In this document: piece by piece, positions 45,296 through 50,743 of the stretch
Layout: every line of letters begins with the position of its first letter
How positions within the stretch are numbered: the stretch's first letter is position 1
IMG/VR virus record: IMGVR_UViG_3300031418_000001
Reading direction: 5' to 3' (one strand)
DNA: 64,000 nucleotides
DNA from: a virus
Lineage: Duplodnaviria; Heunggongvirae; Uroviricota; Caudoviricetes
The notes under the pieces: generated by a model
What the model saw: the letters and a program-made list of their open reading frames with translations, nothing else
What the model was told of the DNA's origin: nothing
Databases searched by the model: none
Made by a program: the position numbers and the translations under genes

Positions 45296-45649
45296 ATGGA
45301 TATTAAAATTTATGGTCAGCATGTAGAAGTTACTGAGGCTATTCGTGAACACGTAGAATCACAGTTTAATAAACTTCACAAATTCAGCAACTATATTCAG
45401 AACGTGAATGTAATGATTGCTGTACGTGGTGGTATTGATCATACTGCAAAGTGTACTATTAAAGTACCTCATCACAATGATATTCATGCTGAAAGTACTT
45501 CGACTGATATGTACAATAGTATTGACAGTCTTTCTCTTAAACTGGAACAACAGCTTCGTAAAATTAAAGGTATCAAAGAAAGCAGTGTTACCCGTAATAC
45601 TGTAGATTTTGACACACAAGAAGATGATAACCAGGAAGACGAACAATAA
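45296..45649 (+). CDS. hpf: ribosome hibernation promoting factor (HPF/RaiA/YfiA family)
   Basis: MDIKIYGQHVEVTEAIREHVESQFNKLHKFSNYIQNVNVMIAV ... DMYNSIDSLSLKLEQQLRKIKG aligns along its length with E. coli HPF (MQLNITGNNVEITEALREFVTAKFAKLEQYFDRINQVYVVLKV ... DMYAAIDGLIDKLARQLTKHK); ATG 45296 after AAGGAGAAG. Confidence 0.8.
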   Translation: MDIKIYGQHVEVTEAIREHVESQFNKLHKFSNYIQNVNVMIAVRGGIDHTAKCTIKVPHHNDIHAESTSTDMYNSIDSLSLKLEQQLRKIKGIKESSVTRNTVDFDTQEDDNQEDEQ

Positions 45650-45675
45650 TTAAAATATATTGACATAATTAATAC

Positions 45676-45703
45676 AAGGACAGTCCAGTACTGTCCTTTT
45701 TCT
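45676..45703 (+). terminator. rho-independent terminator
   Basis: AAGGACAG-tccagta-CTGTCCTT followed by TTTTC. Confidence 0.6.
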
Positions 45704-45721
45704 ATTCTTGGAATTTAAATA

Positions 45722-45898
45722 ATGACTACTAAATTAAAAACGATTGATGAATTTACTAAAGAAGAATTATTTAAATTCTATGAAGAAATTCGTTCACGAG
45801 AAACCTATAATTCAGATGGTTATACCTATGTAACACCTAACGAAAGTTTACTTGATGATATTGAATATATGGTCAAAGAAATGGAGTCCAGAAAATGA
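45722..45898 (+). CDS. hypothetical small protein (58 aa, not in ORF track)
   Basis: ATG 45722; the 91-aa minus-strand ORF over this region is less likely given + strand polarity. Confidence 0.25.
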   Translation: MTTKLKTIDEFTKEELFKFYEEIRSRETYNSDGYTYVTPNESLLDDIEYMVKEMESRK

Positions 45899-46043
45899 TT
45901 ACAGTACTTGAAGAAGATTGGGGAGTAAGTGAGCAAGGTACAGGTGAATATGTATTTCCTGAAAGTACTAAAGAAGAATCATGGTATGATAAATTGAAAG
46001 AATTTATTGGACGAATCCTTTTTGGAAAAAGAGAGACAAAATG
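45894..46043 (+). CDS. hypothetical small protein (49 aa, not in ORF track)
   Basis: ATGA overlaps on both sides (45894 and 46041). Confidence 0.25.
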
Positions 46044-47162
46044 AAAAAGTACATTGTTGGTGGTTTTTGTCGAGATAAATTGTTGGGTCTGCAACCGAAA
46101 GACCGTGACTTTGTTATTGTTGGTGCGAATGAGTGGGATATTAAGCAACTTATTCTACAAGGCTATGAGCAAGTAGGAGCCGATTTCCCCGTGTTTATCT
46201 CACCACAAGGGGAAGAGTATGCCTTGGCCCGTATCGAGCGTAAAACAGGCGTAGGATACGATGGTTTTGATGTACAAACTAAGAACGTAACCTTAGAACA
46301 AGATTTGTCCAGACGTGATCTAACTATTAATGCAATCGCATATGATCAAGTCAAACGTACTTATATCGACCCTTATAATGGTCAAGCGGATTTGAATAAT
46401 AAAGTACTACGTCATGTTTCTGATGCTTTTAAAGAAGATCCGCTACGTGTACTTCGTTTAGCAAGATTCGCAGCAAGATACTCAGAATTTAAAGTACATC
46501 CTGATACAGACAAAATGGTGCGTGAAATGGTTTCTAATGGTGAAATTAATCATCTTACAAAAGAACGTGTTTATGTTGAGTTTGAAAAAGCATGTACTGA
46601 AGATACTCCAAGTATTTTCTTTAAGTACTTAAATGATATTCAGGCACTAAAAGTACTTCTGCCTGAGTTTAAATGCACTCAAGTAAATCAGAAACGAATT
46701 GATGCTATTGCCAAAAATGCAACTTCTGCATATGTTCAAGATTTTATTTGGGCTATTCTTCTTGAAAAGAAAGAACTTAGTAAAGTTAAAGGTGGAGTTC
46801 TTGATAAGATCAAGGCTCCGGTACATTTAATTAAGTTTGCGACATTAGTACAGAAACATTCAGAAACCTTCCTTAAGTTTCGTAAATTAAAACCTGAAGA
46901 AATGGTTTCTTTGTTTGATGCTATTAATGTTAAAAATTTAGGCGGGGAAGAGTTCTTATATAAATTCTGTGAGTACTTTATTATTAATAAAGAACTTGAT
47001 ACAGAACATGAAGAACTAATTATGAAAGTTTATGATACTTATATTGATACTGATCTATCTTCGATTGAAGAAAAACAAAAATCGGGAGAAATGAGTGGTA
47101 TTGAAGTACGTGATGCTGTTCATAATGCCCGTGTGGTTAATGTATCAAAGATGTTTATTTAA
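46041..47162 (+). CDS. cca: tRNA nucleotidyltransferase (CCA-adding enzyme, class II head domain)
   Basis: IVGGFCRDKLLG ... DRDFVIVG (GGxVRD/DxD NTase motif), RRDLTINAIA, DPLRVLRLARFAARY match class II CCA enzymes; 373 aa, no HD domain. Confidence 0.85.
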   Translation: MKKYIVGGFCRDKLLGLQPKDRDFVIVGANEWDIKQLILQGYEQVGADFPVFISPQGEEYALARIERKTGVGYDGFDVQTKNVTLEQDLSRRDLTINAIAYDQVKRTYIDPYNGQADLNNKVLRHVSDAFKEDPLRVLRLARFAARYSEFKVHPDTDKMVREMVSNGEINHLTKERVYVEFEKACTEDTPSIFFKYLNDIQALKVLLPEFKCTQVNQKRIDAIAKNATSAYVQDFIWAILLEKKELSKVKGGVLDKIKAPVHLIKFATLVQKHSETFLKFRKLKPEEMVSLFDAINVKNLGGEEFLYKFCEYFIINKELDTEHEELIMKVYDTYIDTDLSSIEEKQKSGEMSGIEVRDAVHNARVVNVSKMFI

Positions 47163-47192
47163 TTTAGGCTGAATATAATAACAATATTTTTG

Positions 47193-47221
47193 TGAAATAC
47201 ATTTTTACAATGTGCTATACT
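47193..47221 (+). promoter_or_regulatory. early-type promoter copy 3: TGAAAT-N17-TATACT
   Basis: TGAAAT 47193-98, TATACT 47216-21 with TGc extended -10 and ATAAG downstream. Confidence 0.55.
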
Positions 47222-47253
47222 ATAAGTATCTGACAAATCTATGGAATTGTATC

Positions 47254-49032: not shown

Positions 49033-49040
49033 TTAATATA

Positions 49041-49069
49041 AAAGGACTCTTTTTGAGTCCTTTTGTTTT
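49041..49069 (+). terminator. rho-independent terminator (AAGGACTC/GAGTCCTT stem, duplicate of 28858)
   Basis: AAAGGACTC-ttttt-GAGTCCTTT followed by TGTTTT. Confidence 0.6.
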
Positions 49070-49268
49070 AGGAGTATACAATATGTTATTACCGTGGATT
49101 GTGTGTGGTTTAATTATATTTGCAAGTACTTTGGTATTCCTGAAAAAGAAAACAGGCGGTGAAATTGCATTCAATAACGAACTATTATTGTCTATGATCG
49201 TATTTGCAATTATGGGGCCAACTGCAATTTTCATGGGGAGCATAGTAATTAATGATTTTCGTAATTAA
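49053..49268 (+). CDS. hypothetical small membrane protein
   Basis: 71 aa, two hydrophobic helices; overlaps the terminator, so uncertain. Confidence 0.25.
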   Translation: MSPFVLGVYNMLLPWIVCGLIIFASTLVFLKKKTGGEIAFNNELLLSMIVFAIMGPTAIFMGSIVINDFRN

Positions 49269-49728
49269 AGGGAACTTGTTTAATGAAGTTCCGGTATCAG
49301 GTTCAGTTGAACCAATTATAATTGCACACGGCTGTAATGCACAAGGTAAGATGCGTTCTGGTTTTGCTAAAGTAGTACGGGACTTAAATGAAGGCGTATT
49401 CAATGCATATATCCAATCAGGTCATCAGTTAGGTTCAGTATCGTACTTTGAACTATATCCAAATGTATTCGTAGCAAACTGTGTAACTCAGGAATTTTAT
49501 GGGTATGATGGTATAAAATATACTTCATATGATGCAGTAGATTCTTGTTTCAAAAAACTAAATGACTTCATAAAAGAACTTCTTCCTATCACTGGAGCAA
49601 AACGTGCTCAACTAATGTTCCCTAAAATCGGGGCAGTATTAGGTGGTGGTAATTTAGAAGTAATTAATAAGATTATTGATGTAAATGTTCAAGATGAACT
49701 TGCATCTAAAGTACAATTCGTAATTTAA
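49252..49728 (+). CDS. macro domain protein, TARG1/OARD1-like
   Basis: VIKGNLFNEV ... EPIIIAHGCNAQGKMRSGFAKVV parallels TARG1 ([31 protein letters not shown]); 158 aa. Confidence 0.55.
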   Translation: MIFVIKGNLFNEVPVSGSVEPIIIAHGCNAQGKMRSGFAKVVRDLNEGVFNAYIQSGHQLGSVSYFELYPNVFVANCVTQEFYGYDGIKYTSYDAVDSCFKKLNDFIKELLPITGAKRAQLMFPKIGAVLGGGNLEVINKIIDVNVQDELASKVQFVI

Positions 49729-49737
49729 GGAATAAAA

Positions 49738-50040
49738 ATGTCTCAAGCTAAAATTTTCGTAGTAAATGGTGTTGGCCCTGTAATTGTTACTGTAATTACC
49801 GAGCAATCAGATCGTTTTATTTGTACTAATCCAGTACAACTACAACCAGTAAATGATAAAGAAATGTCATTCTCTCCATTACTTGACTTCATGGTTGCTG
49901 ATGATGAACCTCATGAATTCTATAAATCATGTGTTTCTGTTGTTGTAAATCCGAACGAAGGTCTTGCTAAAGCATATATCCAGGCAACCAATCCTAATGC
50001 GATCATTGCACCACCAGAAAAGAAAATTCTGTTGCCTTAA
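49738..50040 (+). CDS. hypothetical protein
   Basis: 100 aa after AAGGAATAAAA RBS. Confidence 0.35.
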   Translation: MSQAKIFVVNGVGPVIVTVITEQSDRFICTNPVQLQPVNDKEMSFSPLLDFMVADDEPHEFYKSCVSVVVNPNEGLAKAYIQATNPNAIIAPPEKKILLP

Positions 50041-50073
50041 TCCAGAATATGGAGTAATATACACTTGAAGAGA

Positions 50074-50349
50074 ATGCGTTATTATCCAACGGTTGAACAA
50101 GCAAGAACTGTCGTTGAAGAAAACATTTTAGTCAATTTCCAACGGGATACATTATATGATATTCCGTTTGTTTATCCTTGTGATAAAACATCACATTTCG
50201 AATTAGAAATGATGAATATTTTAGTACTACAAGATTCAAGTTCATATTCAGGACTTACTGAAATTATTTCTGAATGGCACGATAAAGGTGCAATGAACCA
50301 ATTCAAAGAATTCTTTAAACAACATAAAGGTAGAACTTTCGATGAGTAA
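50074..50349 (+). CDS. hypothetical protein
   Basis: ATG 50074 (track TTG 50065). Confidence 0.3.
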   Translation: MRYYPTVEQARTVVEENILVNFQRDTLYDIPFVYPCDKTSHFELEMMNILVLQDSSSYSGLTEIISEWHDKGAMNQFKEFFKQHKGRTFDE

Positions 50350-50743
50350 AAAACAACTTCCAGATGAAGTAATGCAGGTAGTTATTGTACGTAAAGATTC
50401 TGAAATGAGTCATGCTGCATTAGCACTCCATATTTCTCGTGCAAGTATTGAACTTCGTGATAAATTCGATCCAAATCATCCTGAATATGTGGGACGATAT
50501 GAAGAAGATTACTTTAAAGCGGTCATGAAGAAGTGGTATGAAACCGGACGTGATCAAGAGTACTATGAAGTTGATGACTTTATTGATCTACGCGAAATTG
50601 CATTCCAGTGTGGTATGCAAGCAGTACCATCAAGTTTCTTGGATCGTGAAAACGAAGAAAGTGCTCATTGTCTGATTCTCGGCCCGTTCGATAAGTACGA
50701 GTTGGAAGAACTTACTCAGTACGCTAAATACATCCGAGTGTAA
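50342..50743 (+). CDS. peptidyl-tRNA hydrolase, PTH2 family-like
   Basis: QVVIVRKDSEMSHAALALHISRAS resembles PTH2 core ([24 protein letters not shown]) and the C-terminal CLILGPF...ELTQYAKYI resembles TVLGIGPGP...VTGHLKLY; 133 aa. Confidence 0.45.
   Translation: MSKKQLPDEVMQVVIVRKDSEMSHAALALHISRASIELRDKFDPNHPEYVGRYEEDYFKAVMKKWYETGRDQEYYEVDDFIDLREIAFQCGMQAVPSSFLDRENEESAHCLILGPFDKYELEELTQYAKYIRV

Follow-up and report, generated by a model that had tools for sequence, protein, structure and literature searches.

Do the tightly packed genes at positions 45296-50743 of an uncultivated phage genome fragment form a single system for the upkeep of translation, and does the peptidyl-tRNA hydrolase-like protein encoded at their end rescue peptidyl-tRNA? 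The fragment (IMG/VR record IMGVR_UViG_3300031418_000001, 64,000 nt; this whole stretch is referred to here as the window) had been read, before any database search, as carrying at this place a dense cluster in which seven of thirteen coding sequences (CDSs) have translation, tRNA or redox-linked functions: a ribosome hibernation factor (HPF), a CCA-adding enzyme, a Nudix hydrolase, a glutaredoxin (Grx), a YqeY-domain protein, a macro domain and a PTH2-type peptidyl-tRNA hydrolase. According to this original prediction, the phage would manipulate ribosome dormancy and rescue stalled or damaged tRNA and peptidyl-tRNA. We found that the seven family or fold calls hold, and that the block contains 14 CDSs, not 13, the same set having been called independently in public annotations of identical contigs. 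On balance we lean slightly towards the view that this is a vertically inherited accessory block, with an RNA-repair region on one side and neck/tail genes on the other, in which two themes are interleaved and which does not serve one pathway. The only detail that is new is the PTH2-like gene of the block, which belongs to a separate clade without the catalytic signature; we did not find this described in the literature examined.

Megablast returned only distant relatives of the window, with about 74% nucleotide identity across its CCA-to-YqeY part, namely Xanthomonas phage XaC1 (349 kb) and Cronobacter phage GAP32 (359 kb). The exact PTH2-like protein sequence recurred in several contigs from metagenomes, the longest reported here being one of 349,332 bp. 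Judged by these matches, the window is a piece of an uncultivated jumbo myovirus (about 350 kb) of the RaK2/GAP32/XaC1 group. The genes of the block and their neighbours all lie on the + strand, tightly packed, at about 33-36% G+C. The block is preceded by a membrane-anchored, T4 e-like LysM-lysozyme (44311..45282; Pfam Phage_lysozyme 7.6e-15, plus LysM) and ends at a T4 gp13-like neck or head-tail adaptor gene (50793..51572; assigned to PF26809 in the public annotation of the same gene, and named as a neck protein in XaC1 and GAP32), which is its downstream boundary and the first gene of the structural module. Pfam gathering scores (GA) were passed by six of the seven named domain calls, including those for which profile validation had been proposed as a check, HPF (PF02482), PTH2 (PF01981) and YqeY (PF09424). 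The macro domain, proposed for the same check, was the exception and had no PF01661 match as a single sequence; its fold was upheld by a family profile against solved structures and by a fold search. A named family was matched by 7 of the 14 block CDSs, compared with a deposited product name for about 13 of 88 CDSs in the syntenic upstream 45 kb of XaC1, a contrast that is only rough because the annotation methods differ.

The PTH2-fold protein lacks the canonical catalytic signature

The last gene of the block (50342..50743, + strand) had been taken for a peptidyl-tRNA hydrolase of the archaeal/eukaryotic PTH2 type. The homology and fold of its product are secure by profile and model comparison. 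It exceeded the PF01981 threshold (30.9 bits, GA 23), and a profile of its clade searched against the PDB matched PTH2 structures at E-values from 5.7e-9 (1rlk) to 7.7e-4. An AlphaFold2 (AF2) model, with a predicted local distance difference test score (pLDDT) of 88.8, gave PTH2 for all of the top 14 Foldseek matches, with template modelling (TM) scores of 0.67-0.84 for the best chains, and the fold is the one seen in archaeal and eukaryotic PTH2 (S. solfataricus, 1xty; human Bit1, 1q7s). The clade to which the protein belongs is specific to jumbo phages. It had 33 members in a word-indexed search of 5.8 billion proteins, and those carrier contigs that reach 300 kb or more look like jumbo phages; an exhaustive search of 1.84 billion representatives with the clade profile gave 28 clusters only at E <= 1e-10, 27 of which form the clade. 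A scan of IMG/VR with the PTH2-like profile identified five loci, four of which are known isolates, and ENA/Logan contigs served for the comparison of loci in its place.

The part of the earlier call that did not survive is the catalytic one. The hits were aligned with S. solfataricus Pth2 (Sso numbering), and residues were counted in 110 canonical hits and in the 27 clade clusters. K18 was present in 95 canonical hits and in no clade cluster, Q22 in 95 and two, H25 in 96 and none, D86 in 100 and seven, and T90 in 93 and five, respectively, while K18, D86 and T90 occurred jointly in 88 of the 110 canonical hits and in 0/27 clade clusters. K18 and D86 are reportedly active-site residues of PTH2 (Fromant et al. 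2005). The window protein has A26, H30 and R33 at the positions aligned with K18, Q22 and H25, and the DxGxT loop of its clade is shorter by about five residues. The clade has lost the polar signature K18/Q22/H25/K56/D86/T90 of archaeal/eukaryotic PTH2 and of the canonical phage PTH2 proteins (RaK2 ORF188, Myrna gp36, phiM12 and XacN1). Structural residues are retained (W49, P80 and G103-P104 in Sso numbering, listed also as W65, P96 and G114-P115), and a clade-specific insertion of 9-12 residues, absent from canonical PTH2, carries G51 in 23 of the 27 clusters and an invariant E54. Scores against the NCBIfam equivalog models were far below their cut-offs (NF003314, 23.3 vs 126; TIGR00283, 19.3 vs 82).

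The dN/dS of the PTH2-like gene, 0.048, was the lowest in the block. Phage RaK2 has both kinds of protein, the PTH2-like ORF037 in the block and, 146 kb away, a canonical PTH2 (ORF188) in which K and D are retained. By implication, the copy in the block has a different job. No canonical PTH2 was found in the 64-kb window by tblastn with S. solfataricus PTH2 or RaK2 ORF188. The PTH2-like protein is therefore constrained and functional, but probably not a standard peptidyl-tRNA hydrolase, and since the conserved polar residues of canonical PTH2 are lost, it is doubtful that the gene serves to rescue peptidyl-tRNA. In relatives it is labelled 'hypothetical' nearly everywhere, and 'peptidyl-tRNA hydrolase' in Muenster and in the Vibrio phage. 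For annotation, the in-block gene near the neck is a candidate for a new activity. Since this clade is without the hydrolase signature while RaK2-type phages keep a canonical PTH2 elsewhere, screens of 'phage peptidyl-tRNA hydrolase' should use the canonical copy.

Conservation and selection

The block is syntenic in the RaK2-group phages named below and partly so in Vibrio phage 2.275.O. The order lysozyme, HPF, CCA enzyme, Nudix, Grx, YqeY, orf115, orf83, macro, orf100, PTH2-like, neck, dNMP kinase and sheath is common to XaC1 (XaC1_255-270), a 349,780-bp ENA contig (L011), GAP32 (GAP32_180-195), CBB, BF and fHe-Yen9-04. Escherichia phage A4 and RaK2 (ORF029-038) have the same order except for YqeY, and Vibrio phage 2.275.O retains YqeY, macro, PTH2-like and neck in that order. 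Gene order is kept between phages down to 24-35% identity, with a conserved core of the CCA enzyme, Nudix and Grx (these three at 53-78% identity) together with orf83, macro, orf100 and the PTH2-like gene; the named genes of the window block are 60-78% identical to those of XaC1. By tblastn, RaK2 is without HPF and YqeY, and A4 is without YqeY and has a divergent HPF (A4_529, Pfam 3.8e-10). An HPF could not be assigned in RaK2, since ORF030, the gene after its lysozyme, has no Pfam match. Because HPF and YqeY are variably missing in these two phages, they are dispensable or optional add-ons.

Selection was estimated against a relative with orthologues at 52-91% identity (at 57-91% for the 13 block ORFs tested). 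Every open reading frame (ORF) tested, small ones included, is under purifying selection, with dN/dS values of 0.05-0.35 that are only rough because dS is near saturation (about 1-1.5). Immediately 3′ of the neck gene lies a hot spot for insertions, with a 618-aa DUF7487 gene in one close relative (L021, 11235-13091) and the 667-aa homing endonuclease ORF039 in RaK2 (L003, 10301-12304); in the window this gap holds neither of them.

Predicted organisation into transcription units

Unit boundaries were predicted from start/stop overlaps and from terminator-like hairpins, identified as consensus matches or read by eye. The first predicted unit consists of lysozyme and HPF and ends at a terminator-like GC hairpin with a T-run (45676..45698; terminator scan and sequence), which parts it from the CCA unit. 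The second runs through orf58, orf49 and the CCA enzyme; beyond it lies a gap of 91 nt in which a TGn-TATACT site resembles a promoter. The third runs from Nudix through Grx and YqeY to orf115, ending at an imperfect hairpin (48716-48745). A fourth unit would contain orf83 alone, followed by a hairpin at 49040-49064, and the fifth comprises orf61, macro, orf100, orf94 and the PTH2-like gene, directly 3′ of which lies a hairpin with a T7 run (50750-50792) and then the neck gene. As predicted here, the block is made up of at least five transcription units and is not a single operon. A single operon or dedicated system could therefore not be upheld, as four or five terminator-like hairpins and the 91-nt promoter-like gap divide the stretch, and HPF and YqeY are variably present. 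Lysozyme and HPF are separated by 13 nt that contain a GGAG Shine-Dalgarno sequence, and because of this short gap the two are probably co-transcribed.

A sigma-70 promoter scan gave no excess of sites (41 in the window vs 47 in shuffled sequence). The T4 late-promoter octamer TATAAATA is far rarer than expected (2 copies in the 64 kb, 12.5 expected); one copy is placed directly after the neck gene (51575-51582). The octamer was dropped as a timing marker. An Rfam scan of the window at gathering thresholds gave no match.

Ribosome- and tRNA-directed proteins

The HPF gene (45296..45649, + strand) encodes a short HPF/YfiA-family factor of 117 aa (PF02482, 79.6 bits, GA 23.7; TIGR00741, 81.2 bits, cut-off 40.9). 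It had been described as full-length; the family was confirmed, but the protein is without the C-terminal domain of long HPFs. Residues 1-92 constitute the S30AE ribosome-binding domain and residues 93-117 a RaiA-like acidic C-terminal tail. No second Pfam domain, such as the C-terminal dimerisation domain of the long HPFs (proteins of about 180-190 aa), was found, and long HPFs (5myj, 8uu4, 5nd8) align to residues 4-96 only. Among solved structures the protein matched E. coli HPF (2rql, 5.9e-13) and RaiA (8e-9). It shares the single S30AE domain with E. coli HPF (YhbH), to which it is about 39% identical. All five aligned HPFs of the lineage are extended at the C-terminus and finish with an acidic cluster, an architecture like that of RaiA/YfiA and unlike that of E. 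coli HPF. E. coli RaiA (pY) is of similar size, with 113 aa and a verified ...NFVEEVEEE tail, but the phage tail is not homologous to it in detail, and the phage gene differs from its E. coli counterparts in adjoining an endolysin. Equivalog scores were below the NCBIfam cut-offs for both HPF (65.8 vs 125) and RaiA (45.6 vs 158), and the dN/dS was 0.09.

RaiA stabilises inactive 70S ribosomes instead of promoting 100S formation; its tail reportedly clashes with RMF and so blocks the formation of 100S (Polikanov et al. 2012). From the RaiA-like tail architecture, we predict that the phage HPF stabilises inactive 70S and does not promote 100S, a prediction for the endolysin-adjoining HPFs of this lineage that bears on experiment design. 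Lysozyme lies directly before HPF in XaC1, L011 and A4, while two small genes lie between them in GAP32. Phage HPF homologues have been reported by Mizuno et al. 2019 (PMC6375957), from GAP32 (AFC21633) and rV5-like phages. Like the window HPF, these are PF02482-only proteins (about 105-111 aa) of large myoviruses; the rV5-type HPFs are too divergent for tblastn with the window HPF.

The assignment of a class II CCA-adding tRNA nucleotidyltransferase (46041..47162, + strand; 373 aa) was borne out. The PolyA_pol head (73.5 bits) and the PolyA_pol_RNAbd neck (36.6 bits) are both present, phrog_2244 matched at 2.2e-112, and the GGxxRD, DxD and DxxRRD motifs, read from the translation as G7GFCRD12, D21RD23 and Q87DLSRRD93, are intact. 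The N-terminal head and neck are very similar to those of the multifunctional Cca of E. coli, but the phage enzyme is without the HD domain: the PRK10885 model aligned over residues 1-211 of 409 only (315 bits, cut-off 451), and neither Pfam nor this profile matched an HD phosphohydrolase domain. Since no HD domain was detected, the label 'multifunctional ... phosphodiesterase/nucleotidase/phosphatase' given to the GAP32 and A4 orthologues was not upheld for the window enzyme. Model scores (CCA 315 vs PcnB 98 bits) are no more than suggestive of CCA specificity over A-adding or poly(A) activity. The enzyme is 53-78% identical across relatives, with a dN/dS of 0.07.

The GatB/YqeY-domain call was likewise sound. 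The gene (47926..48360, + strand; 144 aa, with an alternative GTG start at 47917) matched PF09424 at 51.4 bits (GA 27) over positions 12-145 of the 147-aa ORF, as well as phrog_1460 and, at 9.3e-6, B. subtilis YqeY (1ng6). YqeY has a tRNA-binding-type fold, is biochemically uncharacterised and is linked to rpsU in bacteria (PMC13374519).

Nudix hydrolase, glutaredoxin and macro domain

The Nudix hydrolase (47254..47688, + strand) was also correctly recognised, and is more precisely an orthologue of T4 NudE (e.1). It matched PF00293 at 50.1 bits and phrog_1185 at 9.7e-48, and its Nudix box (G-x5-E-x7-REC-x-EE-x-GF; G31KTENTETFAQAAVRECDEEIGF53) is intact. Tblastn gave matches in 1264 phage records, mostly T4-like, and the dN/dS was 0.08. 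Iyer et al. 2022 (PMC9503650) described nudE as sitting with virion lysozyme in late clusters and its product as acting on ADP-ribose, FAD and Ap3A, and hydrolysis of NAD caps by NudE.1 in vitro has been reported (bioRxiv 10.1101/2024.04.04.588121, 2026 preprint version). In the T4-like phage VR26, nudE adjoins lysozyme e and the macro gene tk.4 lies about 5 kb away. The order in the window differs from this T4 neighbourhood, since HPF and the CCA unit separate lysozyme from Nudix; annotations of relatives call the macro gene of the block Tk.4-like.

The glutaredoxin (47685..47924, + strand; 79 aa) belongs to the expected family (PF00462, 46.6 bits) and has the active site C12-K-F-C15. The suggested likeness to NrdC was not supported: its best solved relative was E. 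coli Grx1 (1ego, 2.8e-13), with the CKFC, TVPQ and GG motifs present in the alignment, and no T4 NrdC chain was among its PDB matches at E <= 1e-3. We class it as GrxA-type; its NF008401 score was 69.6 against an equivalog cut-off of 84.

The macro domain (49252..49728, + strand; phrog_335) had no Pfam match as a single sequence. A profile of 44 homologues searched against the PDB matched BT1257 (2fg1, 5.7e-27), SCO6735 (5e3b, 2.5e-21), DarG (3.6e-16), TARG1 (5.7e-13) and also Poa1p, and the top Foldseek matches of the AF2 model (pLDDT 93) were the same structures, with TM scores of 0.70-0.82. The proposed TARG1-like class is thereby retained, but not the catalytic lysine type of TARG1 and DarG. 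Gln80, invariant in the 44 sequences, stands where DarG has its catalytic Lys80 ('ITQEFYG' vs 'PTKKHW'), as it does in BT1257 and SCO6735 ('IGQHG'); TARG1 (K84) was compared by class only. With BT1257 and SCO6735 the window protein shares the pattern HxxN...G...ITQ...PxIGxGxxGG, and we place it in their subgroup. Macro and Nudix lie about 1.6 kb apart, in separate predicted units.

Interpretation of the block

The reading that we hold to be somewhat probable, that of an inherited accessory block with two interleaved themes, can be laid out as follows. The sequence analysis establishes domain identities, fold, residue loss, synteny, purifying selection and the predicted unit boundaries, and from these we infer the activities, targets, timing and cooperation. 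One theme would be to maintain or control the translation apparatus of the host. Here the HD-less CCA enzyme would rebuild tRNA 3′ ends, either of phage tRNAs without encoded CCA or of host tRNAs trimmed by defence nucleases. The RaiA-tailed HPF, probably made together with the endolysin, would occupy the 30S decoding site and park vacant ribosomes as inactive 70S. YqeY, with its tRNA-binding-type domain, could plausibly bind or act on tRNA ends, and the PTH2-fold protein would most likely bind the acyl-tRNA/CCA end or another partner, or use a new site at Glu54. The other theme would be NAD/ADP-ribose and dNTP housekeeping of the T4 type, in which the SCO6735/BT1257-type macro protein may remove or process ADP-ribose derivatives, the NudE-type Nudix may cleave released ADP-ribose, Ap3A or NAD caps, and the GrxA-type glutaredoxin may reduce ribonucleotide reductase. 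Three of the seven genes (Nudix, macro and glutaredoxin) belong to NAD/ADP-ribose and dNTP metabolism, which does not support the original prediction. The notion that the phage manipulates ribosomes and tRNA is itself plausible, as HPF, CCA enzyme, YqeY and the PTH2 fold lie downstream of genes for Thg1, RlaP, an RNA ligase, a TROVE-like protein and a 2H phosphoesterase; its peptidyl-tRNA rescue component is the doubtful part. By these gene assignments, some 33 kb of the window are rich in genes directed at RNA, tRNA and ribosomes, and the block forms the downstream end of that region.

Several points weigh against this interpretation. The adjacency of the block genes is inherited inside a single phage lineage and is therefore weak evidence for cooperation; tblastn detects neither HPF nor YqeY in RaK2 and no YqeY in A4, although A4 has a divergent HPF by Pfam; dS lies near saturation; the terminator-like hairpins rest on consensus matches or by-eye reading, not on mapped RNA ends; a tRNA scan of the whole 64-kb window found no tRNA genes; and a rebuilt active site could still make the PTH2-like protein a hydrolase.

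It is possible, though we consider it unlikely, that unrelated auxiliary genes have simply gathered where insertions are tolerated, between early/middle genes and the structural module, and that they are neighbours through common descent, without functional meaning. The five or more predicted transcription units are in keeping with such a mixed assembly, as are the variability of HPF, YqeY, orf58, orf61 and orf94 between relatives, the insertions next to the neck gene (the RaK2 homing endonuclease and the DUF7487 gene of L021) and the closeness of Nudix, macro and lysozyme in a T4-like phage too. Set against these are the enrichment of RNA, tRNA and ribosome genes over about 33 kb of the window and an order of CCA, Nudix, Grx, orf83, macro, orf100 and PTH2-like that is kept at deep divergence. 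Canonical PTH2 also occurs near a CCA enzyme or Nudix in unrelated phages: 3.4 kb separate it from a tRNA nucleotidyltransferase gene in Myrna, and its neighbours in XacN1 include genes for a phosphoesterase, YbiA/NADAR and Nudix. In Sinorhizobium phage phiM12 (L019, 2199-4336) the canonical PTH2 gene is preceded, at a distance of about 1 kb, by a gene of the RelA/SpoT family, a layout that could reflect a link of alarmone or tRNA-pyrophosphorylation enzymes with PTH2. These three neighbourhoods lend modest independent support to a functional link.

A different explanation keeps the original role, with an active archaeal-type PTH2 that, together with HPF and the CCA enzyme, rescues stalled or dropped-off peptidyl-tRNA and counters host translation shutdown. 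The PF01981 score, the fold, the strong purifying selection and the role proposed for jumbo-phage PTH2 by Iyer et al. 2021 (PMC7824862) would all agree with it, but K18, Q22, H25, D86 and T90, each found in about 86-91% of the canonical hits, are eroded to the point that none of the 27 clade clusters has K, D and T together, and the shortened DxGxT loop, the low equivalog scores and the separate canonical PTH2 of RaK2 point the same way, so that we regard it as improbable. Still less credible, and in our estimate very improbable, is a block devoted mainly to NAD+/ADP-ribose counter-defence, in which macro and NudE would reverse or degrade host ADP-ribosylation and signals (DarT-like, CmdT-like, TIR and SIR2 outputs) and the translation genes would be bystanders. 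It can draw on the TARG1/DarG/SCO6735 class of the macro domain, on NudE orthology and the action of NudE.1 on ADP-ribose and NAD caps (PMC9503650; bioRxiv 10.1101/2024.04.04.588121), on a DUF4326 gene elsewhere in the window, and on the macro and Nudix domains being described as a degradation relay (PMC7824862). However, the catalytic lysine of DarG/TARG1 is an invariant glutamine here, macro and Nudix are in different units, and only 2 of the 14 genes would be accounted for.

We also put forward, as a more far-reaching reading that is rather unlikely to be right, that the PTH2 fold has been neofunctionalised. It would act as a non-hydrolytic binder or decoy of aminoacyl- or peptidyl-tRNA 3′ ends, or as an enzyme whose new active site is built around Glu54, and with the CCA enzyme would protect or repair tRNA against host tRNA-targeting defence (e.g. 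CCA-end acetylation or pyrophosphorylation), and the HPF with its RaiA-like tail, whose expression is probably joint with that of the endolysin, would actively set the state of ribosome hibernation late in infection.

Much of this is known in kind, and the original finding is mostly a re-discovery: these genes have been listed for GAP32 (2012), RaK2 (2013), XaC1 (2024) and Sharanji (2025), and HPF, CCA enzyme, Nudix, Grx, YqeY (as 'tRNA amidotransferase') and macro are annotated in GAP32, XaC1, A4 and Sharanji. Both the CCA enzyme and Pth2 are treated in the paper on RaK2. Iyer et al. 2021 (PMC7824862) listed RNA ligases, RlaP, CCA-adding enzyme, Thg1, TROVE, 2H and PTH2 in group 2/3 jumbo phages and read this repertoire as repair of tRNA hit by host effectors, with a counter-defence role for CCA and PTH2. 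Phage HPF, CCA enzyme, PTH2, macro and NudE have thus all been published before (PMC6375957, PMC7824862, PMC9503650).

Small ORFs and upstream surroundings

The remaining block CDSs, all on the + strand, are small. Upstream of the CCA gene, orf58 (45722..45898), found only in XaC1 and L011 and without a match in Pfam and PHROG searches, has a stop that overlaps the start of orf49 (ATGA), and the stop of orf49 (45895..46044; phrog_34272) overlaps the CCA start. The gene orf115 (48357..48704; phrog_26469) overlaps the YqeY stop and is followed by the imperfect hairpin mentioned above. Between two hairpins, orf83 (48781..49032; phrog_15319) encodes a small protein, basic at its C-terminus (…RARKHRKEVRKYRN), that is 51-70% identical in the eight RaK2-group loci compared and 35% in Vibrio phage 2.275.O; across the lineage it is conserved more strongly than HPF, YqeY or the PTH2-like protein. 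A single-pass membrane protein is predicted, from its hydrophobic sequence, for orf61 (49083..49268), which overlaps the macro start and occurs in XaC1 and L011 only. Further downstream, orf100 (49738..50040; phrog_527) is kept across the lineage with a dN/dS of 0.05, and orf94 (50065..50349) overlaps the start of the PTH2-like gene.

Upstream in the window, a tRNA-His guanylyltransferase gene, Thg1 (17947-18684; PF04446, 2.7e-29), is directly followed by the DUF4326 gene (6.7e-25), the pair spanning 17947-19034; DUF4326 is a predicted enzyme linked to NAD/ADP-ribose (Iyer et al. 2021, PMC7824862). The RNA-ligase-associated Pol-beta nucleotidyltransferase RlaP (21871-23271; PF10127, 5.9e-14) is 71% identical to XaC1_220, and a thymidine kinase gene is also present upstream. 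The gene of an RNA ligase that carries a PHA02142 OB domain (37688-38953) comes just after two adjacent 135-aa paralogues (36864-37678) that have weak DUF2500 matches below the gathering score. Next lies a pair of genes with a 1-base overlap (39832-41318), coding for a HAD hydrolase (phrog_14393) and a ComF-like PRTase_3 protein (7.9e-51), which is present in XaC1 and close relatives and absent from L011 and GAP32-type phages. We dropped its assignment to RNA repair because PRTase and HAD are assigned to Ter-type nucleoside-signal synthesis (PMC7824862), and the pair may serve synthesis of such nucleoside derivatives. A DUF2828/DUF7788 protein (41397-43061; phrog_850 'RNA-binding protein', ROT/TROVE-like) and a 2H 'Swiss-army-knife' phosphoesterase (43193-43666) complete the upstream set, with a strong terminator-like hairpin between their genes (43070-43092).

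Two further observations concern structural genes of the window. A structural protein of about 900 aa is encoded by three paralogous genes that follow one another over 9610-17818 (9610-12309, 12353-15064 and 15086-17812) and whose products are 27-38% identical to XaC1_225 by tblastn; XaC1 annotates a single copy of this gene in the region examined. Among the tail/structural genes, a 150-aa protein (58053-58505) carries, in the public annotation of identical contigs, a Pfam match to a Tn7 TnsA-like N-terminal domain of endonuclease fold.

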